From: an uncultured Candidatus Saccharibacteria bacterium
GTDB taxonomy: Bacteria; Patescibacteriota; Minisyncoccia; Phycocordibacterales; UBA12079
Length of the DNA stretch: 54,454 nucleotides
NCBI GenBank assembly: GCA_964608745.1
Contig: CAZSPC010000002.1
Coordinates: 1-54,454, forward strand
Direction of reading: 5' to 3'
Position 1 is the first letter of the stretch, and every line of letters starts with the position of its first letter. Under the pieces are notes generated by a model. It made no database searches, had not been told where the DNA came from, and saw only the letters and a program-made list of their open reading frames with translations. The translations under genes were made by a program, and so were the position numbers. Below, one piece after another: positions 1,281 to 49,592 of this stretch.

Positions 1281-1976
1281 ATGATAGCAAAAACTGAATT
1301 AAAACAAGAAGCAATAAAATTAAGAAAAAAAGGAAAAACATATTCCGAAATTTTAGAAGAAGTTCCTGTGGCGAAATCCACTTTATCTTTGTGGTTGAAG
1401 GAGGTTAATTTATCAAAATCACAAAAACAGAGAATAACGAAGAAGAGGATTGAAGCTAGTCGAAGAGGAGCTAAAAAAAGAAAGGAACAAAGGATTGAAA
1501 TTACAAAGGTAATCTATGAAAAATCAGAGAAAGAAATAGGAAAACTTTCGAAAAGAGAGTTGTGGTTAATTGGAATTGCTTTGTATTGGGCAGAAGGAAC
1601 AAAAGAAAGGGATTATCGACCTGGCCCATGTATTGACTTTATTAATTCTGATCCATATATAATTTTAATTTTTTTAAAATGGTTAACTGATGTTTGTGAT
1701 ATTGATAAAGAAAGAATTATTTTAAGATTATTTATTCATGAAAATAATAAATATAGACTTAATAATGTAATAGATTATTGGTTGCTTCTAACTGGTTTTT
1801 CAAAGATAGATTATGTCTATTTTAAAAAACATAGTGTAAAAACTACTAGAAAAAAAGTAACAAATAGTGTATATTATGGAGGATTAAATGTGCGAGTTAG
1901 AAAAAGCTCTGAGCTTGTTAGAAAAATTGCAGGTTGGTCAAAAGGTATGGGTAAAAATTATTGCCGGATCGTCTAA
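1281..1976 (+). CDS. N-terminal HTH protein with a possible LAGLIDADG-like (homing-endonuclease-like) C-terminal region
   Basis: HTH-like segment YSEILEEVPVAKSTLSLWLKEV, then a basic coil, then LWLIGIALYWAEGTKE resembling a LAGLIDADG motif. The last 15 nt overlap the tRNA-Gln 5' end. Confidence 0.5.
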   Translation: MIAKTELKQEAIKLRKKGKTYSEILEEVPVAKSTLSLWLKEVNLSKSQKQRITKKRIEASRRGAKKRKEQRIEITKVIYEKSEKEIGKLSKRELWLIGIALYWAEGTKERDYRPGPCIDFINSDPYIILIFLKWLTDVCDIDKERIILRLFIHENNKYRLNNVIDYWLLLTGFSKIDYVYFKKHSVKTTRKKVTNSVYYGGLNVRVRKSSELVRKIAGWSKGMGKNYCRIV

Positions 1977-2033
1977 TTGGTAGGACTGCGGATTTTGGTT
2001 CCGCCAATCTAGGTTCGAGTCCTAGTCCGGCAA
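1962..2033 (+). tRNA. tRNA-Gln (anticodon UUG)
   Basis: Hand-folded cloverleaf: acceptor TGCCGGA/TCCGGCA, D stem GTCT/GGAC, anticodon stem GCGGA/TCCGC with loop TTTTGGT, T arm CTAGG-TTCGAGT-CCTAG. No CCA is encoded. Confidence 0.9.
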
Positions 2034-2482
2034 CTACGACAAATTAAAATACCGATAGAGGTATTTTAATTTTGGCGTCATTTTAGTCGGACTAGAACTC
2101 GAAAAGCGCAGGCAAAGAAAAATTTTGTAAAAATTTTTCAATTTGCCGAGCTGGGGTCGCGAATACTTAGTAGATTTGAGTGTGAAGCATGAAAAATATA
2201 CTTAGTGATTTGTGACCAAGTCCTAACCCGGCCAACATAAAACACTTAAACCCAACGCATAGCATTGGGTTTAAGTGTTTTGGTTGGCAGGTCGGCTCGA
2301 ACCGAGCGAAATATATTTTTCGTAGTGAAGCGGAGAAAAATTTGAGCGAGCGGGACAGCGAGTTCTTGATGAAAAACGAACTTTCTAAGGTTAACCAGTA
2401 ACCAGGCCGGTAGGCTAGGTTATTGGGTAACCGAAAGTTTATTTTTCATTTAGAACTGGCGTCGAGTCCCTGTTCGGCAACA
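2034..2482 (+). repeat. tRNA-linked array of hairpins and structured units
   Basis: Layout is hairpin (2041-2072), unit S1 (2074-2236), hairpin (2239-2281), unit S3 (2282-2482). The units end in AAGTCCTAACCCGGCCAA and GAGTCCCTGTTCGGCAA, which resemble the tRNA-Gln 3' end GAGTCCTAGTCCGGCAA. The S1 core is homologous to a unit at 46763-46935. Confidence 0.75.
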
Positions 2483-14449: not shown

Positions 14450-17161
14450 ATGTTAATTTCATACAACTGGATAAATAAATATTTTGACAACAGATTGCCA
14501 AAACCAAATGAATTGGTGGAGATTTTGAACTCCCACGCTTTTGAGGTTGAGAGTGTTGAGGATTTATCTCAAAGATTTAATAAAATTGTTGTTGGGCAGG
14601 TTGTGGGTGTGGAGAAACACCCTGACGCGGATCGTTTAAGTGTAGCAAGGGTAAATACAGGAAGTGAAGAATTGCAAATTGTTTGTGGTGCCTCTAACCT
14701 AGAAAAAAATCAAAAAGTTCCGGTTGCTACTGTGGGAGCTATTTTACCTGATGGGTTTGAAATTGGAAAAGCAAAATTACGAGGCGTTGAATCAAACGGA
14801 ATGATTTGTTCTGAGAGTGAACTTGGTTTAGCAAAAGAATCAGAAGGAATTATGGTGTTAGATGAAAGTGCAAAGATTGGACAAAATTTTGCTGAATACT
14901 TAAATTTAAACGACACAATTTTAGATATTGATGTTTTGCCAAACAGAGCCCACGACTGCCTTTCACATAGAGGAATGGCAAAAGAAATTGCCATCTTAAC
15001 CGACCTAGAGCCAGAAATCAAAAAAAGTGGGGTACCTGGTACCCCACAAACCGACATCAAATCATCTATTGTTGTGAAAATTGAAGATGAAAAATTATGC
15101 CGAAGATATATTGCTGTTGAAGTTCAAAATATTGAGGTAAAAGAATCTCCTGAGTGGCTTAAAAAAAGTTTAGAGTCAATTGGTCAAAGATCAATCAATA
15201 ATATTGTTGATGCAACTAATTATGTGATGTTTGACCTCGGTCAACCCCTACACGCCTTTGACAGAGAAAAATTATCGGGCGGAAAGATTATAGTTCGAAA
15301 TGCAAAATCAGGTGAAAAAATTACAACCTTAGACAAACAAGAAGTAGAATTAGATGAATCTGTTTTGATCATTGCAGATGAACAGTCTCCTTTGGCAATT
15401 GCTGGAGTAAAAGGTGGAGATAAAGCAGAGGTGGATAAAAATACAAAAAATATCGTATTAGAATCTGCAAACTTTGACCCAACTAGTATTAGAAAAACTT
15501 CTCGTCGATTAAATATTCCAACAGATTCTGCTAAAAGGTTTGAAAACGAAATTAGCACCGAATTGGCTGGTGTTGCAATGGATGAGCTAGTTGCTTTGAT
15601 AAAAGAAGTTGCTGGTACAAATGATACTCAATTTGGTGTTAAAAATGATGTTTATCCAAGAAAGCCTAATTTATACAAAGTGGGAGTTTCTACCGACGAA
15701 GTGAACAAATTGCTCGGTACAAATATTTCTGATAAACAGGTTGAAGAAATTTTAGATAGGTTTGGGTTTGAATATGAAAAAATTAACCCACTTGAAAAAG
15801 TTTTGGAATTAGCACCAACATTTGTGGGTGTGCCGTATAAATTAGGAGCAAGTGTTACCTATGACGCACCGAATAAATTTGATTGCTCATCCTTTGCTTC
15901 ATACCTATTTGCACAAGCGGGAGTTTCAATTCCTAGAATTTCAATCGACCAATACCTACTTGGAGACCGGGTCTCCAAGTCTGGGTTGCGAGCGGGGGAT
16001 TTAATTTTTGCTAATACGGGCGAAGGAAAAATTCATTATGAATCGGTAGAATTTTTGTCAGGCACGAAAATAGAAGAGGGGGTTGATCACCTAGGGGTTT
16101 ATTTGGGTGACGGTCAGGTGATTCATTCTTCTCGTTATAACAAAAATGGAGTTGGGATAGGAAAAATTGAAGATTTCGATCAGTTTAAAAACGTTGTTGG
16201 ATACAGGAGGGTGGTTGAAAAAGGCGCTAAACGGTATATGGTTACAATTCCATATGAGAGGATGGATCTGCGAATTAAAGAAGACTTAATTGAAGAAATT
16301 GGACGGGTTTATGGTTATAAAAATATTGAGTCAATTTTGCCGGAAAGTATTGGAGAGCCAAAAATCAATAAAGTTTTTTATTACTCCAACAAGGTTAGAA
16401 AGATTTTAGGAGAAATTGGTTTTAGTGAAGTGCAAACATATACTTTTGGTGATAGGGGTGAGGTTGAAGTACAAAAGCCTCTCGCGAGTAATTTAGGTTG
16501 TCTAAGGACTAATCTGACCGATGGAATTCAGAAAAGTTTAGATTTAAATCTCAAAAATGCACTGTTATTAGGACTAGATGAAATAAAGATTTTTGAAATT
16601 GGAAAAGTTTTTCCATCTATTGATAGTGAATATACTTCTTTTGCGATTGGTATTCGCTCAGCCAAAAAAATGAAGGCGTCCGTCATTGCGAAGGCGAAGC
16701 GTGTGGCAATCCAGGAAGTTATAAGTATCTTAAATAGTGAATTAAACATTGATTTGAAAGCGGAGGAAAAAGATGGAATTTTTGAAATAAACTTTGACGA
16801 GTTGGTTGAAAAACTTCCCGAATTAGAAAATTATGATGGTGTATTGCCAAAAGAGATCGGTGAAGCCATAAAATATCAAAAAATTTCACCCTATCCATTT
16901 ATGTTAAGAGATATTGCTGTTTGGTTGCCGAATGATAAGAATTCAGATGATTTATTGGCAATAATTACAGAAAATGCGGGAGATTTATTGGTAAATACAA
17001 AATTATTTGATACTTACGCACCCGAGGGCGAAAACAGGACATCTTATGCTTTTAATCTTGTTTTTCAATCAGGTGAAAAAACTTTAACCGATGATGAAGT
17101 AAATAAAATTATGGATAAAATTACGAAAGAGGTTGAGAAAAATGGTTGGGAAGTGAGGTAA
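14450..17161 (+). CDS. pheT: Phenylalanine--tRNA ligase beta subunit carrying an inserted NlpC/P60 domain
   Basis: It has the tRNA-binding domain (VVGQVVGVEKHPDADRL), B3/4, B5 (VSTDEVNKLLG...ILDRFGFE / VTIPYERMDLRIKEDLIEEIGRVYGY) and a C-terminal FDX-ACB-like end. Residues about 446-595 match the NlpC/P60 pattern. Confidence 0.95.
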   Translation: MLISYNWINKYFDNRLPKPNELVEILNSHAFEVESVEDLSQRFNKIVVGQVVGVEKHPDADRLSVARVNTGSEELQIVCGASNLEKNQKVPVATVGAILPDGFEIGKAKLRGVESNGMICSESELGLAKESEGIMVLDESAKIGQNFAEYLNLNDTILDIDVLPNRAHDCLSHRGMAKEIAILTDLEPEIKKSGVPGTPQTDIKSSIVVKIEDEKLCRRYIAVEVQNIEVKESPEWLKKSLESIGQRSINNIVDATNYVMFDLGQPLHAFDREKLSGGKIIVRNAKSGEKITTLDKQEVELDESVLIIADEQSPLAIAGVKGGDKAEVDKNTKNIVLESANFDPTSIRKTSRRLNIPTDSAKRFENEISTELAGVAMDELVALIKEVAGTNDTQFGVKNDVYPRKPNLYKVGVSTDEVNKLLGTNISDKQVEEILDRFGFEYEKINPLEKVLELAPTFVGVPYKLGASVTYDAPNKFDCSSFASYLFAQAGVSIPRISIDQYLLGDRVSKSGLRAGDLIFANTGEGKIHYESVEFLSGTKIEEGVDHLGVYLGDGQVIHSSRYNKNGVGIGKIEDFDQFKNVVGYRRVVEKGAKRYMVTIPYERMDLRIKEDLIEEIGRVYGYKNIESILPESIGEPKINKVFYYSNKVRKILGEIGFSEVQTYTFGDRGEVEVQKPLASNLGCLRTNLTDGIQKSLDLNLKNALLLGLDEIKIFEIGKVFPSIDSEYTSFAIGIRSAKKMKASVIAKAKRVAIQEVISILNSELNIDLKAEEKDGIFEINFDELVEKLPELENYDGVLPKEIGEAIKYQKISPYPFMLRDIAVWLPNDKNSDDLLAIITENAGDLLVNTKLFDTYAPEGENRTSYAFNLVFQSGEKTLTDDEVNKIMDKITKEVEKNGWEVR

Positions 17162-17193: not shown

Positions 17194-17249
17194 TTGACAA
17201 AGGTATCGATAGAGTATCGATACCCTATCGATACCTTTTTTGGTATAAT
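17194..17249 (+). promoter_or_regulatory. Promoter region with a 34-nt palindromic operator-like element
   Basis: TTGACA at 17194-17199. Palindrome GGTATCGATAGAGTATCGATACCCTATCGATACC at 17202-17235. Extended -10 TGgTATAAT at 17241-17249, about 10 nt before the ATG. Confidence 0.6.
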
Positions 17250-17258
17250 TTAAATACT

Positions 17259-27518: not shown

Positions 27519-28298
27519 ATGAGAGGGGTATTAGAATTATATAAAAAAGAAGGTGAGACGCCGTTGGAATGTATTGAACGATTTAGGGGTGAAAATCCTG
27601 AGTATAAAAACGAAAAAATGACATATGCAGGACGACTTGATCCGATGGCCGAAGGTGTTTTGTTGGTGCTTGTGGGGGATGAATGCAAAAAAAAGCAAAA
27701 ATATCTTGGTTTGGATAAGGAATACGAATTTGAAATTCTTTGGGGATTTCAAACAGATACTTATGATATTCTTGGTATCCCACAAATCTCATTCTTACAT
27801 TCTCGAGAATGTAAGAATGAGAAAATTAGTAAAAATCTATTCTCATATTCTCGAGAATATGAGAATGAATTGATTGGTGAATTAAAGAAAATCAAAGGAA
27901 AATCTATGCAAAAATATCCCCCATATTCTTCGATGACAGTAAAAGGAAAACAACTTCATCAATGGGCGAGAGAAGACAGGTTGGATGAGATTGAAATTCC
28001 GGAGAGAGAAGTTGAAATATACAACATTGAATTTTTAGGGAATAGGGAAATTAATTCAAAAAATTTATTAGAAAATATTACAGAAAGGATTGAAAAAATA
28101 TCAGGTGATTTTCGACAAGACGAAATAAAGAAAGGTTGGAAAGATTTGTTAGAAAAAAGTCAAAAAAATTTTTTGATTTCTAAATTTAAAATTAAATGTT
28201 CAAGCGGGACATATGTTAGGGAAATTGCAAGCGATTTGGGTGGCAAGTTGGGCGTAGGAGCAGTAGCTTTTTCTATCAAAAGAACAAAAATTTTTTAA
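27519..28298 (+). CDS. truB: tRNA pseudouridine(55) synthase
   Basis: YAGRLDPMAEGVLLVLVG (catalytic Asp), YEFEILWGFQTDTYD, QKYPPYSS, and CSSGTYVREI. Confidence 0.9.
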   Translation: MRGVLELYKKEGETPLECIERFRGENPEYKNEKMTYAGRLDPMAEGVLLVLVGDECKKKQKYLGLDKEYEFEILWGFQTDTYDILGIPQISFLHSRECKNEKISKNLFSYSREYENELIGELKKIKGKSMQKYPPYSSMTVKGKQLHQWAREDRLDEIEIPEREVEIYNIEFLGNREINSKNLLENITERIEKISGDFRQDEIKKGWKDLLEKSQKNFLISKFKIKCSSGTYVREIASDLGGKLGVGAVAFSIKRTKIF

Positions 28299-40881: not shown

Positions 40882-41427
40882 TGTAACCTCCTTTTAGTTG
40901 AATTAAATAACTCTGAGTTACAAAACTATTCATACTGCTTTAAATTTTTCTTCTGTTTTTTAAGGAAAAATTTAAAGTGTCACGAGAATTTTCTGAAGTT
41001 TTTAGAAACAAAGATGAAAATTTCAGGAAATTCGTAGTAGAAGAGAGTTTTGTAATTTAGAGTAAATAAAGAACAAAAAACCCCATCTCTTCGAGGGTTT
41101 ACAAAAAATATGTACTACTCTCATTCCTCGAAGAGTTATTAATACTATCTATAATTAAGCGACCTGGCTTATTCTCTTAATGAGACATTACAGTTGCGGG
41201 TCAGCCGAGGATTCTCACCTCGTTCGTTAACTATAAATATTTATGGATTTTTACTGAGTTTATTATAGCATAGAAAATAAATAAAACCCCAATACTCAGC
41301 CGTGTTGGGATTTAACTTATTCTAGCTCCGCCTGGTAGATGAAGTTAGAATCTATGTTATGTTGAATAGAGAATAAGAAAACCCGCTCAACGAGAACGGG
41401 AGTTCTTGTTGGCGGAAGTTGTAATAT

Positions 41428-41760
41428 CTAAAATTGACATCTTTTCATCAAAAGACTTAATTTATCTTCGTAGGGAGCAACAAAGTCCATCCATGAGATT
41501 TTATTTTCTAGTTTTCCTTTGAAGTTTGCAAAAACTTTTAACGAACCATTGTCCCAAGATTTTTCACAAAGAAGACAGTCGGGACATGCATATACGGCAG
41601 AACCATGATAAGTGTTGTCTTCTTCATGCACCCATAGAGAATTTTCGTGGTTACATTCTAATCGTAATTCCCAAATTCTCTTTTTTGCTTTTTTTGTTTC
41701 TGCTTCTGCTTTAAATATTTTTTCTCTTTCTGTTTGTATCTTTTTTAGTAAGTCTTTCAT
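41428..41760 (-). CDS. Hypothetical protein with Cys/His clusters
   Basis: 110-aa ORF containing ECNHEN...ACPDCLLCEK. Confidence 0.5.
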   Translation of the reverse strand: MKDLLKKIQTEREKIFKAEAETKKAKKRIWELRLECNHENSLWVHEEDNTYHGSAVYACPDCLLCEKSWDNGSLKVFANFKGKLENKISWMDFVAPYEDKLSLLMKRCQF

Positions 41761-41896
41761 TGATCCATCTCCATCTTTGTTTGAAAGTTAAGTATTTAAT
41801 TTCTACCCAAAATATACACAAACCAACTAACTTTGTAAAGCAAAAAACGCCCCATCCTCTCGGAGGTGTCTAAAATATGGCTCAACGAAGTCGTTT

Positions 41897-42145
41897 GCTC
41901 CGGCGGTAGGACTCCTCGTCCCGCAGTTACTAAGTAAATTTTTCGTGCTTCGCATTCAAAAATAGTAAGTACTGCTGGACGCGGCGCGGCGACAAGCCTA
42001 AATTTTTTCTCCGCTACGCTACGAAAAAATTTATCTTGTATCATACTGCTCGCTAAAGCAAGTGCCTTGCGCCGTTCGAGTCCTGCCCCGAAGGAAAACA
42101 ATAAAGTCCCAATATTTCATATTGGGACTTAATTGTTTTTGCTCC
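41897..42145 (-). repeat. Orphan copy of the tRNA-Asn-linked structured unit plus its hairpin
   Basis: It begins gctccggcggtaggactc, which matches the tRNA-Asn 3' end at 17/18 positions. It is collinear with 46498-46767, including the hairpin aaaacaataaagtcccaatat/atattgggacttaattgtttt. Confidence 0.8.
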
Positions 42146-42250
42146 CTATAGTAGACAAGTTCAGAACACTAAACTGGAAGAAAATTAAAAGAGAATTAGA
42201 GTTTTCGGGTATTTTTGAGTTACTTGCGAAAGAGGAGTTTCAGAACTAAT

Positions 42251-42790
42251 TTATAAAGTTTTTAAGTATTCTTCAAAAAATGCTTTATCTCTGATTATAT
42301 TAAATGCAGTGTTGTAAAATTCAACCTCTCCATTTTTAACTTTTTGCTCTTGTTCTTCTAAAATTTTTAGAATTTCATCTTTATCAAACCAAACTACATT
42401 TAGCTCGTTTTTCTTTTCGTCTTCTGTTCTCGTGTCTTCGTTTGCTTTTTTAATTGTTTTCACAAGAAAACAAACTGTTTCGTATTCTTTTTTGCTTCTG
42501 TTTCTGAATTCGTGAATTCTACCAACTTCTTTTATCACTTCAACTTCAAAATTAACTTCTTCATCACACTCTCTGATAACTTCTTTTTCTAAATCTTCGC
42601 TTTCTGCACCGCCTCCAGCAAGTAAATAGAAATTGTGAACAGGGTTAGTAACAAAACCAAATTTACCCTCGCCATTTTGAACGATTGCTTTCACAGTAAC
42701 TCTTTTTTCAAAACTCTCTGGAGTTTCAAATTCTGGATTTTTGAAGATATCTTTGTCTTCTAGTGTTGTTATATATTTCACAGAAAACAT
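42251..42790 (-). CDS. Nudix hydrolase
   Basis: Nudix box GGGAESEDLEKEVIRECDEEVNF. Confidence 0.85.
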   Translation of the reverse strand: MFSVKYITTLEDKDIFKNPEFETPESFEKRVTVKAIVQNGEGKFGFVTNPVHNFYLLAGGGAESEDLEKEVIRECDEEVNFEVEVIKEVGRIHEFRNRSKKEYETVCFLVKTIKKANEDTRTEDEKKNELNVVWFDKDEILKILEEQEQKVKNGEVEFYNTAFNIIRDKAFFEEYLKTL

Positions 42791-42847
42791 TGTAACAAAA
42801 AACAGGTGTTTAGGTAATATGTCTACCTAAACACCTGTTATAGAGAT

Positions 42848-43486
42848 TTATATTTCAAACTTAATCCTCGGTAATGGTTTATCTAAAATTATTTCGTCCT
42901 TAATTATATCCATTACAGAAACGTAACAATTCGGAGGGTTTGCTAAATAGCGAAAATCTTCATCGCTTATATTTAACAAAGATTTCGCTATAACTCTTAA
43001 AGCAAATCCGTGGGTAAAAATAATTACACACTCAGGATAGTTTGGTTCTTTTCCTTCGGATAGAGTTTTTTGAGCAAAGAGATGAATTTTTTGAACAAAC
43101 TCGGACGAGTTGTCTCCGTTAGGGAACTTGTAAAACAAAACACCTGCACGGTAACGCTCTTGCTCAATTTCTTTAAGGTTGTCCTTGTTGGTATCACCCC
43201 AGTTCAGGTTTCGGATAGACCTTTCATTTTGGATTTCAAACCTTATAGAGTTAAACAATGAGCAAAAAAGCTGTGTTGTTTGTAATACTCTGTAAGTCAA
43301 AGATGTAAAGACTTTTACATCTTCATAGTCCGAAATCAAAGGTTCTATTTTTTCGGCTAGTTCATAAACTTGCCTTTTGCCAAGTTTCGTTATTGGTACA
43401 GTCTCGTTTTTATACTTGTTTTTGATGTTTGGGTTGATATCCTCTTTAGATTGAGCGTGCCTAATTAAAATAATTCTTTTAAGCAT
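42848..43486 (-). CDS. Histidine phosphatase (PGAM-like) family protein
   Basis: ILIRHAQS (RHG-type motif) and IIFTHGFALRV. Confidence 0.8.
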   Translation of the reverse strand: MLKRIILIRHAQSKEDINPNIKNKYKNETVPITKLGKRQVYELAEKIEPLISDYEDVKVFTSLTYRVLQTTQLFCSLFNSIRFEIQNERSIRNLNWGDTNKDNLKEIEQERYRAGVLFYKFPNGDNSSEFVQKIHLFAQKTLSEGKEPNYPECVIIFTHGFALRVIAKSLLNISDEDFRYLANPPNCYVSVMDIIKDEIILDKPLPRIKFEI

Positions 43487-43496
43487 TTCTCTGCTC

Positions 43497-44510
43497 CTAC
43501 TTTTTATTACTTATGTAGTTGTGGACCGCATAAGTAAAGGTTTTCTCAAGGTTTGGTTTTTCAAATACTTTTTTCCAACAGTCCTTATCTTCTGTGAAGA
43601 AAAGGGATGATTTCTCTAGTGCGTATTGACCAAAGCTAACAAATTGAAATTCTAAAAGATAGAATTCGTTTTGTTTATTTGCGATGTCAAAAGACGCAAA
43701 AGGGACATTGAAGAATTTAAAAACCGCTTTAGCGTAATCTAGTAGTTCAGTTGGTGGCTCTTTTACGAACTCTAGCAAACCACTACCGCTGGCTCGGAAA
43801 TCATTATTTCTGTTTCGTCTTTTCAAGACATAATACTTGTTATCGTAAACTAGTACCTTGTAATCGAAAGACAGTCCAGAGATAAAGTTTTGAGTTATAA
43901 ATTTTTTTCTAAAGTTTGATATTGGCTTATATCCTTTACCACTTATCAAACCACCTAAAAATCTCCTAAGGTTGATGAGTGAAAAAGTGTAAGAAATGAG
44001 ACCTGCCGAAAAAGTAGATTTCTTTTTTGACTGGCTGAAAAATACACCCCTACTCCTTGAGCCAGCACTCTGTTTAAGAACTACAGGTTCATTTTCTGCT
44101 TGCTCTTTAAATTCTTCCAAAACCCCAAACTTTTTTGTTTGTATGTTTTGAATAGGGTTAAAGCTAGATATATCCCTAAGTATTTCCATAAACACCTTGT
44201 TGTGATGAGCTCTAAACCTGGAAAAGTCAGGGATAAGGATTGCTCCTGCTAGTTGTAAACCAAGAAGAATATCCTCTATATAGTCTTTATAACTTAACTC
44301 AGGGTCTTCTGATGATTGGTACAATACAAAAGAATTTTTGTATTTTGATGACATAAAATCAACTTCCGAAAATTTTTCTATAAAGACTACATATCCTAAA
44401 AACTCAAACAGACTTTTTATTGCTAAAAAGTCCATACTTCCCGCAACTTCTTTTGTTGAAGAATAAAAAGTATTCCTATAATCAATCAAAAGAAAAATTG
44501 TTTTCTTCAT
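43497..44510 (-). CDS. ATP-grasp ligase (RimK-like)
   Basis: VVLKQSAGSRSRGVF, DYKVLVYDNKYYVLKRRNRNNDFRASGSG and FDIANKQNEFYLLEFQ. Confidence 0.7.
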   Translation of the reverse strand: MKKTIFLLIDYRNTFYSSTKEVAGSMDFLAIKSLFEFLGYVVFIEKFSEVDFMSSKYKNSFVLYQSSEDPELSYKDYIEDILLGLQLAGAILIPDFSRFRAHHNKVFMEILRDISSFNPIQNIQTKKFGVLEEFKEQAENEPVVLKQSAGSRSRGVFFSQSKKKSTFSAGLISYTFSLINLRRFLGGLISGKGYKPISNFRKKFITQNFISGLSFDYKVLVYDNKYYVLKRRNRNNDFRASGSGLLEFVKEPPTELLDYAKAVFKFFNVPFASFDIANKQNEFYLLEFQFVSFGQYALEKSSLFFTEDKDCWKKVFEKPNLEKTFTYAVHNYISNKK

Positions 44511-44758
44511 CTAAAACCTCCATATATATAACTTATTGTAATGTTCTGTTCAATTTCCTGGCAAAAACATACCATACAGATAATACAGTAGTCAACGGTA
44601 TTTGTTTAAAATTGGAAGAAAATTAAGTCTGAATTGGAGTATAGTGGTATTTTAAAGACGTTGGAAAACCAGAGACTTCAGAACTTTTGTTAGTTCTTTT
44701 AATAAATTATATTATTGAGTTTATCTAAGGTTACCCCAAAGAGTAACCTTTTAGGTGG

Positions 44759-44890
44759 TTAGTAATAAATCTTACGAACCTCTCTAGTCGTAGTAGCGGG
44801 ATGTCTTTCAGCATACGCTTTAGTTACAATCCTACCAGTCCGACTATCACGATAAATAACTATCGTCCTAAATCGCTTAGTTTTAATCAT
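44759..44890 (-). CDS. 43-aa basic ORF (MIKTKRFRTIVIYRDSRTGRIVTKAYAERHPATTTREVRKIYY)
   Basis: Translated by hand from an ORF below the track cutoff. A hairpin aaggttac/gtaacctt follows it. No SD was seen. Confidence 0.35.
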   Translation of the reverse strand: MIKTKRFRTIVIYRDSRTGRIVTKAYAERHPATTTREVRKIYY

Positions 44891-45115
44891 AGCGTTTATG
44901 AATTAACTAATAATACCACTACTTTTTCGGTAGTGTGCTGAAGCTACAAAAGTAGGACACCGTTTCTCTTGAGATAACCTTAGATAAATTCAAAGAGCAT
45001 CTTTCTTATCTTTATATTGAATTATATTGTATTGTAAAGTAAAGTAAATAAGAACAAAAAGTTATCTACATCAAAAAATTGATATGTAAAGCATTGTCAA
45101 GTATAATTATTAACA

Positions 45116-45355
45116 ATGAATAAATATAAAATATGTTCATATCCGTTACAAGATGGTCGTTGGGGACCTGCTTTTAAAAAACCCGTTGTCTCAGATGGAA
45201 AATCTGCAACATTTTCAAGCCCTACTGAGTTTGGTATCTACTTTAAAACAAAAGAAGAGGCGGATGAGTATGTGATTTTTTATTTAAAAGAAAATGGAAT
45301 AAATGAAATTGATATTTCTGATGAAAAAGAAAATAACGGCGATTATGAATTATAA
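45116..45355 (+). CDS. Small hypothetical protein
   Basis: 79-aa ORF with a TATAAT-like box about 15 nt upstream. Confidence 0.45.
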   Translation: MNKYKICSYPLQDGRWGPAFKKPVVSDGKSATFSSPTEFGIYFKTKEEADEYVIFYLKENGINEIDISDEKENNGDYEL

Positions 45356-45362
45356 TAAAAAT

Positions 45363-45539
45363 ATGGAAAGAGAATTTTATACAGCTGAGGAATTGGCTGA
45401 AAAACTACGAGTAAACATTATGACGATTTATCGTTATATAAAGGCAGGAAAACTAAAAGCTTACAAATTGGGTAAGGAGTTTAGGATCGGTAAAAAAGAA
45501 TTTAATAGTTTTTTAAAAAAATCAAAAATTATTAATTAA
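45363..45539 (+). CDS. Excisionase-family HTH DNA-binding protein
   Basis: YTAEELAEKLRVNIMTIYRYIKAGKLKAYKLGKEFRI. Confidence 0.7.
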   Translation: MEREFYTAEELAEKLRVNIMTIYRYIKAGKLKAYKLGKEFRIGKKEFNSFLKKSKIIN

Positions 45540-45558
45540 TTAATTAATTAAAAATAAT

Positions 45559-46359
45559 ATGAAAAATTTTTTAGATACAAGAAACACAATAATACTAATA
45601 TTGGTTGTTGTTGTGGTAGTTCTTATCACTTCCTATTTGAAAAACAATACGAATAATAGTGATAATAGCCTTTCTGGTATAGAAAGTAATCTTGTTAAGC
45701 TTAATAAGGATATGGAATTTTATAAATACTTGAGTATTTATAAAAGTTTGTTAGATGACGAAGAAAGTAAGTTGGTTGATGAAAGGTCTTCAAAAATAAA
45801 TGAGGAGCTTGCAGATGAAGACTCTAAAATAGTAGAAGCACTGACTCTTTTTATTGTGAATGAAATTATGAAAGACGAGAATTCAAAAAAAATAATACTT
45901 GATTTAAAAGACAAAGTAGATGATTTGGTAAAAAAATCAGAGATTGACGAAAGTGTTTTATTTACCAAAAACACAGAGTGTGCAAAATTTTCTTCTGACA
46001 TAAAGGAAGAATTATCAAAAAAATATAAATCAACATCAACAGTTACAGAAACAGAGGAATTAAATTTTATTTTTTATAGTCCCGAATTAAATACCTGTCT
46101 TTACTCTACTAGTTATAATTACGATTATTCTAATTATTCCAATAGAGAAAACCCCTATTATTCAAAAGATAGTTATAGAGTTTACGAGGTATCTTCAAGT
46201 AACCCAATACAAAAATATCCAAGTTATTATTATAAATATCCTTATTTAAGTGAAGACGAAGCTGATAAGTCTGCTGAAAATGGCTTAATTGGATATAAGA
46301 AATTTATTCTTGAGAATTCTGGCTATAACGCTAAATTATTAAAAGACATAAATTATTAA
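45559..46359 (+). CDS. Membrane-anchored protein with an acidic coiled region and a Tyr-rich C-terminus
   Basis: TM helix ILILVVVVVVLITSYL. Function unknown. Confidence 0.55.
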   Translation: MKNFLDTRNTIILILVVVVVVLITSYLKNNTNNSDNSLSGIESNLVKLNKDMEFYKYLSIYKSLLDDEESKLVDERSSKINEELADEDSKIVEALTLFIVNEIMKDENSKKIILDLKDKVDDLVKKSEIDESVLFTKNTECAKFSSDIKEELSKKYKSTSTVTETEELNFIFYSPELNTCLYSTSYNYDYSNYSNRENPYYSKDSYRVYEVSSSNPIQKYPSYYYKYPYLSEDEADKSAENGLIGYKKFILENSGYNAKLLKDINY

Positions 46360-46368
46360 AAGTAATTT

Positions 46369-46455
46369 ATGAAAGCGGTAATCTTAGCTAGAGTATCAAC
46401 AGAAGGGCAAAGAGAGGCAGGAAACTCACTTCCTGCTCAGCCTGAACACAAATGA
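46369..46455 (+). pseudogene. 5' fragment of a serine recombinase gene
   Basis: MKAVILARVSTEGQREAGNSLPAQ matches the catalytic N-terminus (RVST..Q...SL..Q). The frame stops after 28 codons, where the tRNA-linked repeats begin. Confidence 0.7.
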
Positions 46456-46497
46456 GTTAAAAAATAAAGGTAAGTGTATCCTGCGGATTCTGTTGAA

Positions 46498-46984
46498 GTA
46501 GGACTCGTCCCGCAGTTACTAACTATTTTTTTCGTCCTACGGACTCAAAAATAGTAAGTACTGCTGGACGCGGCACGGCGACAAGTCTAAATTTGAAGTA
46601 AAGGAGTATCGATAGGGTATTGATACCCTATCGATACCCCTTTACTTTAAATTTATCTTGTATCATACTGCTCGCTAAAGCAAGTGCCTTGCGCCGTTCG
46701 AGTCCTGCCCCGAAGGAAAACAATAAAGCCCCAATATTTCATATTGGGACTTAATTGTTTTTGCTCCGGCGGCAGGACTCGGTCACGAGTTACTAATTAT
46801 TTTTTTCGTCCTATGGACTCAAAAATAATAAGTACTCTCGACCCCAGCTCGACTGTTTCTTTCACTTCGTTTCAGAAACATGCCTGCGCTTTTCGAGTCC
46901 TGACGCAAGGTGTGCAGACACCTTGCTCCGCTCGGATCCAAAACAACAAAACAGCCCTACAAAAAGTAGGATTGTTTTGTTGTT
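46498..46984 (-). repeat. tRNA-Asn-linked array of hairpins and structured units
   Basis: Read on the minus strand, the layout is hairpin (46984-46938), unit B2 (46935-46763), hairpin (46762-46717), unit B1 (46716-46498). B2 ends in 19 nt identical to the tRNA-Asn 3' end. Confidence 0.8.
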
Positions 46985-47060
46985 GGCTCCGGCGGCAGGA
47001 CTCGAACCTGCGACCCAGCGATTAACAGTCGCTTGCTCTACCAACTGAGCTACGCCGGAA
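46985..47060 (-). tRNA. tRNA-Asn (anticodon GUU), CCA encoded
   Basis: The reverse complement folds as TCCGGCG-TA-GCTC-AGTTGGTA-GAGC-A-AGCGA-CTGTTAA-TCGCT-GGGTC-GCAGG-TTCGAGT-CCTGC-CGCCGGA-G-CCA. Confidence 0.93.
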
Positions 47061-47266
47061 TGTTACAATATTCAATTTTAAATTTAATTCCATGCGTAGT
47101 GATGTTTTTCGCAAGCGACTGTAAAAGGATTTGCTCTTCCCTTTATCGTCCTGTCTCACTTCGTTCGACTTGGACGATTTCCTCACTTTGTTCGGAACCA
47201 CCTGAAAACCTTAAACGGTTTTCAGCCAACTGACCATACGCCGGAATGTTACAATATTCAATTTTC
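47061..47266 (-). repeat. Duplicated tRNA-Asn 5' end plus upstream flank, with about 146 nt between the copies
   Basis: ccaactgagctacgccggaatgttacaatattcaatttt (47042-47080) is repeated as ccaactgaccatacgccggaatgttacaatattcaatttt (47227-47266). Confidence 0.8.
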
Positions 47267-47372
47267 AAAATGAACTTCTATATCTTATCAAAAAAACAGA
47301 AAATGTGAAGAGTTTGGTTTTACTAATGTAGAGGTGGTATAATCTAATTATTAAAACTAATTCAGAACAATT

Positions 47373-48266
47373 ATGAAAAACACAATTATTTTAATCTTAC
47401 TAATTATCATCGGTTTTGGTGGGTATTATTTTTTAAAAAATTCATCGGAAAATCAAGAATCCCAAAATCAAATAAATACTGAAACAAATCAAAACTCACA
47501 GGCGACCACAACGGTTGAGGATAAAACAAAAACTATTATCGGAAAATCTGTTGGGGGCGAAGATATCGTTGCTTATCACTACGGAGAGGGGGAGACGGAA
47601 GTTTTATTTGTTGGAGGAATTCACGGAGGTTATGGCTGGAATACTGCTTTACTGGGATACGAAGCAATGGATTATCTAAAAGCTAATCCGGATATGATTG
47701 CAACGAGTACCAAAGTAACAATCATCCCGGTTCTAAATCCAGATGGTTTAGAAAAAGTAGTTGGTACAACAGAAAAATTTGACTCAACCACCGCACCGAC
47801 AAATACAGAAAAAATTACAGAAGGTCGGTTCAATGCAAGTGAGGTTGATTTGAATCGAAACTTTGATTGCGATTGGGCTTCAGAAGGTAAGTGGCAAAAC
47901 AAAACAGTTAGTGGAGGAACAGAGGTATTTTCAGAACCGGAAGCAAAAGCTATCAAAAATTATGTAGAAAAAAATAATCCAAGTGCAGTTGTGGTTTGGT
48001 ATAGTGCGGCGGGAGGAGTTTACTCATCAAGTTGTCACAATGGAATTTTGGAAGAAACAAAAGACCTAACTAATGCCTATGCTGATGCGTCTGGTTACAA
48101 AGGATATGATGAATTTGAGTCATATGAAGTAACAGGTGATTTAACTAATTGGTTGGCTAAAATAGATATTCCGGCAATTAGTGTACTTTTGAGTAATCAT
48201 GAAGATGTTGAGTGGGAGGAGAATAAAAAGGGTATTGAAGCAGTGCTAAATTACTTTGATAAATAA
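47373..48266 (+). CDS. M14-family carboxypeptidase-like protein, probably non-catalytic
   Basis: TM anchor and DLNRNFDCDW. Positions equivalent to the metal ligands of the paralog read HGGYGW and VWYS instead of HGGYEW and FWHS. Confidence 0.7.
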   Translation: MKNTIILILLIIIGFGGYYFLKNSSENQESQNQINTETNQNSQATTTVEDKTKTIIGKSVGGEDIVAYHYGEGETEVLFVGGIHGGYGWNTALLGYEAMDYLKANPDMIATSTKVTIIPVLNPDGLEKVVGTTEKFDSTTAPTNTEKITEGRFNASEVDLNRNFDCDWASEGKWQNKTVSGGTEVFSEPEAKAIKNYVEKNNPSAVVVWYSAAGGVYSSSCHNGILEETKDLTNAYADASGYKGYDEFESYEVTGDLTNWLAKIDIPAISVLLSNHEDVEWEENKKGIEAVLNYFDK

Positions 48267-48272
48267 TTCACC

Positions 48273-48391
48273 TTCGTCTTTGCGAGCGAAGCGTGGCAAT
48301 CCAGGCTTTTGCTTGCTTTGGCAAGCAGAATATTTAGGTTCGCCAAGGCGAACCAACGTCTGGATTGCTACGCTTCGCTCGCAAAGACGAA
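48273..48391. repeat. Composite GC-rich palindromic element
   Basis: The arms are ttcgtctttgcgagcgaagcgtggcaatccag and ctggattgctacgcttcgctcgcaaagacgaa. They enclose two small hairpins. Related half-sites lie at 12048-12078, 16676-16714 and 38441-38473. Confidence 0.85.
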
Positions 48392-48426
48392 CCTCCTCAG
48401 ACGGTTCGTCTTGAAGTTTAGTAAAA

Positions 48427-48681
48427 AATAAAAACCCCGTATAATCACAAAAAGTGATTATACGGGGGTGGGAACTGGTTCGAGAAGCATATCCCACAAT
48501 TTGTTTACTTCTCGAGAAGACCACATTTTTCGCCCTCACCCACGGGTCTCCATACGGGGAGGTAGCTATCCCTGTTTATCCTCATTGCGACCGGGAAACG
48601 TCATTGCAATAAGACCAAGCTGTTGGCGGATACTAACCGGTGCCCGCTTGGCGACACCAGTTTGCCGGACCATCAATTTCT
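48427..48681 (-). ncRNA. Stand-alone structured RNA candidate of about 255 nt, class not identified
   Basis: On the minus strand the promoter is TTGACA (48715-48710)-N16-TGcTATACT (48693-48688). The body is about 50% GC by eye with several hairpins. The terminator is ccccgtataatcac/gtgattatacgggg followed by a U-run. No credible ORF is present. Confidence 0.6.
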
Positions 48682-48737
48682 ACGAGAAGTATAGCATACC
48701 AAAATTATTTGTCAAGCACTTTTTTAAGTTTTAAACT

Positions 48738-49592
48738 ATGTCAAAAAATAAATTATTTATTTTAATTATTATTTTAGTTATTCTTACAGGAATAAGCTTT
48801 TTTGCATGGCAAAAATATTCTAATGAACCAGAAGAAATAATCGAGCCAACTTTTAAACAAGAAGTTATTGGAAAATCTGTTGAGAGTAGAAATATAGAGG
48901 CTTACACATATGGTAATGGCTCTGAACACCTACTCTTTGTCGGTGGAATTCATGGTGGTTATGAATGGAATTCTGTTGTACTGGCTTATCGGTTTGTGGA
49001 TTATTTTGATAAGTACCCCGAAAATATTCCTGAAAATTTAAAGATAACTATTATCCCAAATTTAAATCCTGATGGAGTTTACAAAGTAGTCGGTAAAGAA
49101 GGAAGATTTTCTGGGGAAGATATTTTACCGGATGTTGATCAAACACTTGGACGATTCAACGCAAATGATGTTGATTTGAATAGAAATTTTGATTGTAATT
49201 GGCAAGCAACAAGTACTTGGCGAAGTCAGCCGGTTAGTGCTGGCACAAAAGTTTTTTCAGAACCGGAAGCCCGAGCCATCCGAGATTTTGTGCTCAAAAA
49301 TAATCCAATAGCTGTTGTCTTTTGGCATAGTCAGTCAAACGCAGTGTATGCGTCTGAATGTGAGGGGGGAGTTCTTCCTAAAACACTTGATATTATGAAT
49401 GTATATTCAGATGCTTCGGGTTACCCAGCAATAGATTCATTTGATGCTTATAAAATAACAGGAGATGCAGAAGGTTGGTTGGCTTCAATTGGAATTCCCG
49501 CTATTACAGTCGAACTCAGTACTCACGAAACGATTGAATGGAATAAAAATTTAGCAGGAGTAAAAGCTTTATTAAAATATTATGATCAATAA
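48738..49592 (+). CDS. M14-family zinc carboxypeptidase (membrane anchored)
   Basis: GGIHGGYEWNS, DLNRNFDCNW, FSEPEARAI and FWHSQSN. It is a paralog of 47373-48266. Confidence 0.8.
   Translation: MSKNKLFILIIILVILTGISFFAWQKYSNEPEEIIEPTFKQEVIGKSVESRNIEAYTYGNGSEHLLFVGGIHGGYEWNSVVLAYRFVDYFDKYPENIPENLKITIIPNLNPDGVYKVVGKEGRFSGEDILPDVDQTLGRFNANDVDLNRNFDCNWQATSTWRSQPVSAGTKVFSEPEARAIRDFVLKNNPIAVVFWHSQSNAVYASECEGGVLPKTLDIMNVYSDASGYPAIDSFDAYKITGDAEGWLASIGIPAITVELSTHETIEWNKNLAGVKALLKYYDQ

Follow-up and report, generated by a model that had tools for sequence, protein, structure and literature searches.

Noncoding units bearing the reverse complement and a copy of a tRNA 3' end: candidate attachment-site modules behind tRNA genes of Patescibacteria

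Behind the tRNA-Asn gene in a 54,454-nt stretch of DNA from an uncultured Candidatus Saccharibacteria bacterium (contig CAZSPC010000002.1; hereafter, the window), we identified an array of short noncoding units, each of which joins a reverse complement (A') and a direct copy (A) of the tRNA 3' end to a structured three-way-junction core. Sequence comparison of metagenome-assembled genomes (MAGs) and metagenome contigs, on which this work is based, indicates that the units form a family with one fold specific to one strand, linkage to tRNA genes, ends that track the sequence of the adjoining tRNA, horizontal exchange, insertion of cargo at A, and no coding capacity. We tentatively propose, at slightly below an even chance, that across Patescibacteria the units serve as the attachment-site modules of a cassette system that resembles integrons and is anchored on tRNA genes. 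From this evidence we infer insertion and excision of the units, with the folded single strand as the substrate and a recombinase acting in trans.

The template for A in the window is the final ~22 nt of tRNA-Asn. Along the minus strand from this gene come a terminator-like hairpin (cap1), unit B2, a second hairpin (cap2), and unit B1; a displaced copy of B1 and its hairpin lies 4.4 kb from B1, and a sister array stands behind tRNA-Gln. The features of both loci are as follows (other loci are cited by L numbers).

46984-47059, minus strand: tRNA-Asn (GTT), CCA encoded (ARAGORN and Rfam)
46938-46986 (including CCA/TGG), minus strand: cap1, a bidirectional terminator-like hairpin (A-tract/GC-stem/U-tract) whose stem extends into the tRNA CCA
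46762-46937, minus strand: unit B2 (type I); fold z = -7.5, covariance-model score 134 bits, inverted repeats
46928-46937, minus strand: B2 part A'a, complement of the acceptor 3' strand
46905-46927, minus strand: B2 part Px, a hairpin
46892-46904, minus strand: B2 part A'b, complement of the T-stem/T-loop
46782-46891, minus strand: B2 three-way-junction core
46762-46781, minus strand: B2 part A, copy of the tRNA-Asn 3' end (19/19)
46717-46762, minus strand: cap2, second terminator-like hairpin, 21-nt arms at 90%
46498-46716, minus strand: unit B1 (type II); fold z = -12.4, covariance-model score 111 bits
46697-46716, minus strand: B1 part A'
46507-46696, minus strand: B1 core, with a palindromic insertion at the P2 tip (46588-46655)
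46498-46506, minus strand: B1 part A, truncated at the island junction, ending in ...GAGTCCTAC
42146-46497: 4.35-kb island inserted into the array (Pfam and synteny with L016)
46369-46455, plus strand: 28-codon fragment (MKAVILARVSTEGQREAGNSLPAQ...), a serine-recombinase N terminus by motif only
41896-42145, minus strand: displaced copy of B1 and its hairpin (B1')
42141-42145, minus strand: GAGCA of the displaced copy
42095-42140, minus strand: cap2' of the displaced copy
42075-42094, minus strand: B1' part A'
41918-42074, minus strand: B1' core, in which the P3 3' strand is a mosaic patch
41896-41917, minus strand: B1' part A, 17/18 to the tRNA-Asn end
1962-2034, plus strand: tRNA-Gln of the sister locus
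2034-2079, plus strand: first cap behind tRNA-Gln
2086-2236, plus strand: unit S1 (type I)
2237-2282, plus strand: second cap behind tRNA-Gln
2283-2481, plus strand: unit S2 (third core type)

An earlier sequence-only reading of this DNA had described a minus-strand tRNA-Asn with encoded CCA that runs straight into a 21-bp hairpin, the CCA forming part of the stem. The gene, the adjacency, and the shared stem were all recovered, but the arms of cap1 are imperfect (19 nt, 89% complementary); those of the second hairpin, also given as 21 bp, do measure 21 nt but are likewise imperfect (90%). Both hairpins score as intrinsic-terminator-like, and the segments flagged by an intrinsic-terminator scan (46955-46971, 46726-46752, and 42104-42130, minus strand) are the caps. 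As described, B2 ends in CGAGTCCTGCCGCCGGAGC, identical to the tRNA-Asn 3' end at 19/19 positions, and begins with the complement of that end, CAGGACTCG pairing with the unit's own CGAGTCCTG (13-nt arms, 92%). The duplication of B1 and its hairpin is equally real (119 nt at 99% and 91 nt at 90% versus 41896-42145), and the terminus of the duplicated copy, GAGTCCTACCGCCGGAGC, matches the tRNA-Asn end at 17 of 18 positions. The acceptor part of the tRNA end is absent from B1, and the stop at ...GAGTCCTAC is the island junction. The proposed homology of B2 to S1 was borne out by a 24-base gapped pattern taken from the long hairpin: it matches exactly four units in the window (S1, B2, B1, and B1') with zero expected by chance, so that the earlier description is correct, and the covariance-model E values for this homology range from 1e-22 to 1e-33.

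To define the fold, we aligned 24 units, obtained a three-way-junction consensus, and built a covariance model from that alignment. P1 is the closing helix of A' with A, P2 is a variable arm holding a conserved internal loop, and P3, the long arm, contains ACUUAnUA...UAnUUAGU, in which a U.U mismatch is conserved, followed by tandem G.A pairs and a 4-bp stem that ends in a triloop. The model detected 42 sense-strand units at E < 1e-9 in ~203 kb of Patescibacteria DNA. Across the resulting 42-sequence alignment, standard pairs fill 95.0% of cells (73.7% after shuffling), and 29 of 31 pairs have changed on both sides; the observed values were reached by none of 500 shuffles, and pairing fell to 31 to 44% when the 3' partners were slid as a control. 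The inner six pairs of the closing helix, which derive from the T-arm, are kept in 89 to 93% of cells. Type I and type II cores differ by compensatory swaps at the base of P3 (GGUC/GACC versus GUCC/GGAC), and a third core type, seen in S2 and several other units, has the same architecture with another P3 sequence. The four window copies (S1, B2, B1, and B1') fold alike into a Y shape in the tRNA-sense single strand (z = -4.4 to -12.4). The units are 150 to 270 nt long and contain no credible open reading frame (ORF). Rfam 15 at gathering thresholds returned only tRNA and AdoCbl for the whole window and likewise no family for the units in five loci; at E <= 10, positions 41700-47400 gave only chance microRNA-like hairpin matches and no tRNA-like, YrlA, or tmRNA model. 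Literature searches found no description of such elements.

Two scans, one of genomes and one of metagenomes, were each run with a single strict long-hairpin pattern, so that these counts understate how far the family extends. Among 185,579 species genomes, the pattern found 16 loci, all in Patescibacteria MAGs (labeled Paceibacterota, Minisyncoccia, Campbellbacteria, or Saccharibacteria), and the metagenome scan added 12 contigs. A tRNA or tmRNA gene lies on the same strand within 700 nt upstream of 36 of the 42 units; of the remaining six, three are cut off by the end of a contig or locus (L006, L026, and L027) and three stand behind an inserted island (window B1', L016, and L028). Fourteen amino acid specificities (Lys, Asn, Gln, Pro, Ser, Leu, Asp, Ala, Tyr, Trp, Glu, Val, Gly, and Met) and tmRNA are represented, in agreement with the earlier suggestion that one family takes on the end of whichever tRNA precedes it. 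Units at many non-tRNA sites, or a similarity that fails statistically, had been named as evidence against that suggestion, and neither was found. Independently of the model, ~22 of the 47 tRNAs at these loci match their own last 16 nt at 13/16 or better, directly or as the reverse complement, within 450 nt downstream; no match in the upstream control reaches 13/16.

Units occur in arrays of two or three, together with truncated pieces that keep 3' halves (L011, L012, L018, L019, and L021). In L019 (positions 1-500), ~118-nt tandem repeats behind tRNA-Lys consist of alternating type I and type II 3' halves, and all of these pieces begin at the P3 tip (TTTGA...). Many 5'-truncated copies are what one would predict if RNA intermediates carried the units to new sites, with a read-through transcript that ends in A being reverse transcribed from a nick in the tRNA gene by SINE-like (short interspersed nuclear element-like) target priming, and remnants in L018, L019, L027, and L010 do keep the P3 3' strand and A. 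We find this route barely credible: no reverse transcriptase was seen in any locus, and A' is unaccounted for, complementing the genomic rather than the mature CCA end of the tRNA and offering no primer-binding site.

The order of parts at a locus is tRNA, cap, A', often Px, the three-way-junction core, and A. A' is the reverse complement of the last 20 to 25 nt of the tRNA, beginning at T54 or G53 and reaching one or two bases past the discriminator, and A is a direct copy from C56 to the 3' end, with 16/16 copies of tRNA ends in many loci. In spanning the mid T-loop to the discriminator, A resembles the identity blocks of attP and attB. Px (GAAAG-stem-CUUUC), where present, sits exactly between the acceptor and T-stem parts of A'. 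The cap is mostly a terminator (A-tract/GC-stem/U-tract) and at tRNA-Pro, tRNA-Arg, and tRNA-Leu(cag) a short linker such as AACGAACGUAGUGAGAUU. With no gap between cap and A', the tRNA end, cap, and A' make up one long near-perfect palindrome, clearest in L009 (Trp), L014 (Tyr), and L012 (Ala) and present in the window too. A' complements the 3' strand of the tRNA and does not copy its 5' strand (at tRNA-Trp, A' reads GGGTCCA and the tRNA 5' strand GGGTCTA), and where tRNA-Pro differs between genomes (CACCCCG versus CGCCCCG), the same change appears in both A and A' of the unit. The mean duplex energy of A' with the tRNA end is -25.3 kcal/mol, versus -19.7 kcal/mol with the unit's own A (25-nt partners). 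In eight to nine units (L012, L014, L009, L021-Asp, S1, L008-Gly, L007, and L015), the outer A has decayed while A' still matches the tRNA; the decay is concentrated at the T-stem/acceptor boundary, often with 6 to 9 AT-rich bases in place of 2 to 5 nt. Two candidate descriptions were rejected on these grounds: a tRNA copy with an insertion in the T-loop, since A' is a strict reverse complement of the 3' strand including T-loop and discriminator, and a retroviral-type primer-binding site, since A' complements the genomic tRNA end and the start of the cap rather than the mature CCA end.

The fold belongs to the sense strand, which is more stable than the antisense strand in 38 of 39 units (-54.0 versus -45.1 kcal/mol; Wilcoxon P = 8e-8), and in the 24-unit alignment ~25 G.U pairs stand against 9 A.C pairs. 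Such strand specificity, together with the covariation, bears on how far integration alone can account for the units. Site-specific integration into tRNA 3' ends was the explanation offered by the sequence-only reading, and part of it stands: direct repeats are present, and islands and insertion polymorphisms lie exactly at them. A direct repeat from mid T-loop to tRNA 3' end is, moreover, what integration at tRNA genes classically leaves behind. In its simplest form, the idea makes the units passive scars, decayed attL/attR sites of integrase-bearing islands, and this is very improbable. Islands do occur in arrays, and 30- to 33-nt 3'-end duplications with ~60-nt inserts are found at tRNA-Leu in L018 and tRNA-Arg in L033, as scars might leave. 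Random decay, however, would not leave one 140-nt three-way junction, with 29 of 31 pairs covarying, at 14 specificities; deletion endpoints do not vary around a shared core; and simple integration predicts neither the precise reverse complement of the tRNA end, which is always present, nor folding on the sense strand only. Covariation and strand specificity thus largely refute the scar explanation.

An exact C(GNA)G triloop closes 21 of 42 P3 tips (GAA, 13; GUA, 5; GCA, 3), and the sense strand of the units has 38 occurrences of the motif GCGNAGC (4.1/kb) and the antisense strand none, compared with a background of 0.13/kb. As DNA, the mini-hairpin d(GCGNAGC) has extraordinary stability, far above that of its RNA counterpart; it has been described in single-stranded DNA priming sites (phage G4 and ssiA) and in the hairpin promoters of phage N4 (PMC13037366). 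The strand bias and the DNA-type triloops favor a folded sense strand that acts as DNA.

The same data can be read differently, with the units as genes for a tRNA-like structured RNA from the tRNA operon, a possibility that we regard as real but on balance unlikely. The A':A helix would imitate an acceptor/T-arm minihelix, with Px in place of the D and anticodon arms; RNase P and RNase Z-type enzymes would release the unit from read-through transcripts; and the pseudosymmetric ACUUAGU/ACUUAGU helix of P3 (U.U mismatch and tandem G.A) would bind a protein. An RNA gene would explain why units always lie on the tRNA strand, why covariation is strong and G.U is tolerated on the sense strand only, why most units are followed by a terminator of their own, and why Px stands at the acceptor/T junction. 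No terminator separates tRNA and unit at tRNA-Pro and tRNA-Leu(cag), one unit abuts tRNA-Val, B2 differs from its L016 ortholog by compensatory changes at background divergence, and dicistronic tRNA-snoRNA genes, treated in references cited in PMC12045711, offer a precedent. Yet a strong terminator precedes most units, and a scan found no promoter-like site. A' pairs on through the discriminator into the cap, unlike a pre-tRNA substrate, and its complementarity to the tRNA end outlasts the decay of A, leaving the eight to nine units above with strong A':tRNA pairing and a weak outer closing helix. The apical loops are GNA triloops of the DNA type rather than GNRA or UNCG, there is no T-loop, Rfam gives no match to the units even at E <= 10, and near-identical units in diverged genomes would be left unexplained. 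A hammerhead, a K-turn, and a box C/D motif were considered for the UGA-stem-GAA motif and ruled out, there being no CUGA, no 3-nt bulge, and no Rfam ribozyme match.

Insertions at the tRNA-matched ends bear directly on the attachment-site proposal. The window island encodes a NUDIX protein, a His_Phos_1 protein, a 337-aa ORF, a 79-aa ORF, an HTH_17 protein, a 266-aa ORF, and the N-terminal fragment of a recombinase; the HTH_17 family includes excisionases. This fragment is the broken serine recombinase that had been noted beside the units, and it belongs to the inserted 4.35-kb island, not to the units. PDB and Pfam searches with it gave no match, and the best tblastn E values were 1 to 2 (a phage recombinase, E = 2). 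A split recombinase gene of the SSV type was ruled out, no C-terminal part being present at the other island end.

The syntenic tRNA-Asn locus L016, from a genome ~80% identical to the window, shows a related island in another position. There, tRNA-Asn ends in ...GGAGCC and is followed directly by a ~4-kb island, of which ~2.8 kb (NUDIX, His-phosphatase, and the 337-aa ORF) is ~80% identical to the window island, including the cap-side end; GGAGCCAAC, cap1, a B2-type unit, and ...CCGCCGGAGCA come next. The window island has the same cap-side end (...CTTGTCTACTATAGG), placed after the array and followed by GAGCA-cap2'-B1'. The L016 island lies between tRNA-Asn and cap1 plus unit, and the window island after the array. 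An ~85-nt direct repeat flanks the NUDIX/His-phosphatase/337-aa module in both (window, 42169-42250 and 44609-44701; L016, 2375-2469 and 4819-4900), and the island may therefore be composite.

Islands are found exactly at the 3' end of A, with a 5- to 9-nt repeat of its end, in the window, L016, and L028; in L028, a type I restriction-modification island stands between two Ser-type units, directly after A (...CTCTCCGCC|AGATG). In L022, a 1,323-nt insert (339-1661) coding for one 352-aa protein, signal-peptide-like and coiled-coil-looking, follows exactly after the unit's A, and the site is empty in the close relatives L023 and L008 (L022/L023 flanks, 93 to 96% identical). This insert ends in a core-less palindrome of tRNA-Pro acceptor sequence, GGGGCGC-GAA-GCGCCCC. 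In L020, tRNA-Val begins 3 nt after the distal A, as expected if the original flank was displaced. Clustering of the ORFs in unit neighborhoods gave no recurrent protein family, only ordinary synteny.

The units themselves show signs of both old residence and recent exchange. B2 is 81.6% identical to the L016 unit, which is the background level, with compensatory changes in P3, so B2 appears to be an old resident. The core of B1 is 96% identical over 100 nt to a unit behind tRNA-Lys (L007) of the same ~80%-identical relative as L016, and the outer ends of the two differ. A segment of L027 (139-345) matches L018 at 180 of 181 aligned positions once a 26-nt indel at a hairpin tip is set aside; just 5' of it, the 80 nt of cap and outer A' are 83.5% identical, and genes of the two genomes are 70 to 74% identical. 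Near-identity begins at the inner A' (AGAGGAATCGAA) and stops at an inner A (CGATTCCT), a pattern that indicates recent horizontal exchange of a segment bounded by inverted repeats derived from the T-arm. L018 and L027 come from independent projects, and the identity could in principle be an assembly artifact. In B1', a patch in the 3' strand of P3 resembles the B2/L016 type and breaks a pair, so units also recombine with one another. Logan contigs were all 100% identical to the window and broke inside the repeat regions, and thus carry no information on strain polymorphism.

Long partial tRNA duplications of the classical kind were observed in the same genomes (L018, 6146-6240; L033, 1000-1087; L027, 6350-6450; L021, 3120-3224), with 30- to 33-nt 3' ends after ~60-nt inserts, 5' halves upstream, and some altered anticodon loops; these are separate traces of integration at tRNA genes.

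Hairpin tips are the breakpoints both of truncated units and of the 26-nt deletion, the conversion patch of B1' begins at the P3 tip and breaks a pair, and the A:cap:A' palindromes are near perfect. All of this could arise if the inverted and direct copies were a functionless by-product of template switching at hairpins during replication, a terminator palindrome growing into the tRNA end and then being copied back beyond the next hairpin. We consider this explanation improbable, because terminators of protein genes in the window (for example, 42801-42839) are unaffected and because conservation of the core sequence across classes, cassette insertion at A, and the 180/181 identity between diverged genomes would go unexplained. 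Scars, neutral growth of palindromes, and retroposition are all much less likely than either attachment sites or a structured RNA.

If the units are attachment sites, a free or single-stranded tRNA-sense form would pair A with A' into one stem, closed at one end by the cap and at the other by the core. This stem would imitate the 3' end of the tRNA gene and thereby match the target. The cassette would enter by recombination, either at the resident tRNA end or at the A of a module already in place, which would regenerate tRNA and terminator and leave a second A downstream; repeated insertion would build arrays, with the recombinase supplied in trans. That a folded single strand serves as the substrate we infer by likeness to integron attC sites and to the CTX-phi attP(+) hairpin. 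Cassettes are either empty (cap plus module, as in B2 and B1) or gene carrying (the window island, the L028 restriction-modification island, and the L022 insert). On this proposal, the window would read as tRNA-Asn, an empty cassette (cap1 plus B2), cap2 plus B1, the gene-carrying island, and cap2' plus B1'. An additional role as RNA may exist beside that of attachment site, units being transcribed in some loci, and the two are mutually compatible.

Several observations weigh against attachment sites. No recombinase was found beside the units or among the 28 window ORFs scanned, which are a part of the window's ORFs, and no excised circle or junction was found among the MAG and metagenome contigs compared. 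The evidence from empty sites covers gene inserts, not the units themselves. The long-hairpin (P3) pattern matched no viral contig, and of the 88 viral loci given by two 14-nt junction patterns the covariance model confirmed none; a phage origin of the units was rejected on these viral-contig scans. In a few units (L013-Glu, L019, and L010), the closing helix is unrelated to the unit's own tRNA. Some arrays are conserved between relatives and B2 is apparently vertical with compensatory changes, which suggests selection in place. At the tRNA-Pro, tRNA-Leu(cag), and tRNA-Val-abutting loci, where no terminator intervenes before the unit or the next tRNA adjoins it, the units are certainly transcribed. 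Px at the acceptor/T-stem junction, finally, gives a tRNA-like topology that is more natural for RNA.

A more speculative version of the attachment-site proposal, which we think rather doubtful, is a mobile element that encodes no protein: a 200- to 270-nt single-stranded "dumbbell" cassette, integrating and excising at any tRNA or tmRNA 3' end through a host or trans-acting enzyme and providing a docking site for gene cassettes. Its parts would be the A:A' stem, the terminator cap, and the three-way junction with DNA mini-hairpins as possible priming or recognition signals, and its transfer from one Patescibacteria cell to another could rely, for instance, on uptake of single-stranded DNA by competence. 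Such an element would amount to the equivalent of an integron anchored on tRNA genes, whose recombination site takes the target as its template.

Comparison with known systems places the units near several of them. As in integrons, cassettes stand in arrays at one anchoring site, encode no recombinase, and may be empty or gene carrying side by side; the attC site is an imperfect palindrome with structure conserved over sequence and folding on one strand, and in the units a fold and a strand bias are seen, whether as DNA or as RNA. Integrons, in contrast, are anchored at attI rather than at any tRNA or tmRNA 3' end, whereas the unit site is made from the target's own sequence and includes a large conserved three-way junction, each cassette beginning with a terminator. 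No intI or Phage_integrase match was found among the 28 window ORFs scanned (not every ORF), and RYYYAAC/GTTRRRY core sites are absent from the units, the ends of which derive from the tRNA and vary with it. In CTX-phi attP(+) and in integrative mobile elements exploiting Xer (IMEX), two inverted copies of the recombination site ~100 nt apart fold in single-stranded DNA and mimic the chromosomal target; after CTX-phi integration, the inverted pair stands at one end and a hybrid site at the other. This topology is the same as the tRNA[A]-cap-A'-core-A of the units, but CTX-phi and IMEX target dif through XerCD, whereas the units, of ~200 to 270 nt and with no phage genome, lie at tRNA or tmRNA ends.

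Tycheposon arrays and tRNA/tmRNA islands reportedly integrate at 3' ends with a repeat, form tandem arrays and remnants, and use several tRNAs per family. The units have the repeat, the arrays and remnants, and the use of several tRNAs in common with them and would integrate in the same place; the islands, however, are kilobases long and encode an integrase, and none is known to have either a structured core that covaries or the tRNA end in reverse complement. The direct repeats of a classical island are thus present in the units, without the integrase and cargo between the repeats. Elements of the REP/BIME-RAYT and IS200/IS605 miniature kinds are, in general, also short, noncoding, hairpin rich, strand specific, and often located just after genes. 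They are mobilized in trans as single strands, with fixed ends and a 4- to 5-nt target, in contrast to unit ends of 20 to 25 nt copied from the adjoining tRNA, and no Y1 or HUH gene was seen in the unit neighborhoods. The terminal inverted repeats specific to miniature inverted-repeat transposable elements are lacking: A' and A change with the tRNA, with only the inner 10 to 12 nt, derived from the T-arm, near constant.

Among RNAs, tRNA-like molecules (YrlA/Y RNA, tmRNA, viral tRNA-like structures, and dicistronic tRNA-snoRNA) share an acceptor/T-arm-like coaxial helix with the units and, like them, may be expressed in a tRNA-type context. The units differ in having a three-way junction instead of a T-loop, a helix continuous through the discriminator, an identity that follows the adjoining tRNA, and no single-stranded NCCA tail, the discriminator and following bases being paired with A'. 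Single-stranded DNA initiation signals (G4 origin and RSF1010 ssiA) are similar as ~100- to 150-nt one-strand hairpin clusters with C(GNA)G caps (PMC13037366) but have no tRNA linkage, and replication priming by the units would be speculative. TIGR-Tas arrays have an adjacent Tas protein with a Nop domain and dual-spacer units of roughly 36 nt (PMC12045711); no such protein or repeat is present at the loci, which rules out this assignment. With no intI, attI, or R-box, a non-dif target, no integrase, no fixed repeats, no T-loop, and no Rfam match, the units fall outside every named family. Judged from sequence, they would be a previously undescribed variant of site-specific, nonautonomous integrative elements or recombination sites, most like integron attC cassettes or the CTX-phi attP(+) hairpin, with a choice of target as in tRNA islands and tycheposons.

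Patescibacteria, or the candidate phyla radiation (CPR), have tiny genomes, and their gain of genes is little understood; the modules mark insertion points of restriction-modification systems, secreted proteins, and other cargo. As recombination sites, they would form a platform for cassette capture anchored on the most conserved sequences of any genome, with a site that mimics its own target. As RNAs, they would be a large, highly structured, tRNA-matched class missing from Rfam. On either reading, the covariance model allows the units to be annotated, and mobile DNA to be located, in CPR MAGs.

The surrounding window genes are those of an ordinary chromosome (gyrB, pheST, leuS, relA/spoT, and truB). 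Upstream of tRNA-Asn lies a mirror element, absent from the earlier reading, that opens on a copy of the tRNA 5' end and closes on its complement:

47089-47245, minus strand: upstream mirror element of tRNA-Asn

It is a structured piece of ~155 nt, bounded by a 32-nt repeat (47237-47268 and 47051-47082) composed of a promoter-like 22 nt and the first 10 nt of tRNA-Asn, and includes a 9-bp stem whose 7-nt loop, GUUUAAG, is anticodon-like (anticodon UUA). A homolog (83%) stands upstream of tRNA-Lys in L009 (2040-2160), and 16/16 copies of tRNA 5' ends upstream of tRNAs occur also in L007, L009, L013, L021, and L027. Two tandem paralogous M14 carboxypeptidase genes (47373-49592, plus strand) adjoin the tRNA-Asn locus, and at the sister locus an ORF with a weak HTH_23 match (1281-1976, plus strand) overlaps the first 15 nt of tRNA-Gln. 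A palindrome, GTATCGATAG...CTATCGATAC, occurs twice, in the hairpin after pheT (17203-17252) and in the P2-tip insertion of B1 (46588-46655), and may be a small mobile palindrome. The PheRS beta subunit (14450-17161, plus strand) has an NlpC/P60 peptidase domain inserted at residues 460-572, between B3_4 and B5. An AdoCbl riboswitch (41107-41252, minus strand; 62 bits) has no downstream same-strand ORF of >33 aa before the convergent YibE/F gene. Within the truB reading frame, two 43-nt palindromic repeats (ATTCTTACATTCTCGAGAATGTAAGAATGAG...) stand in tandem (27791-27881, plus strand).

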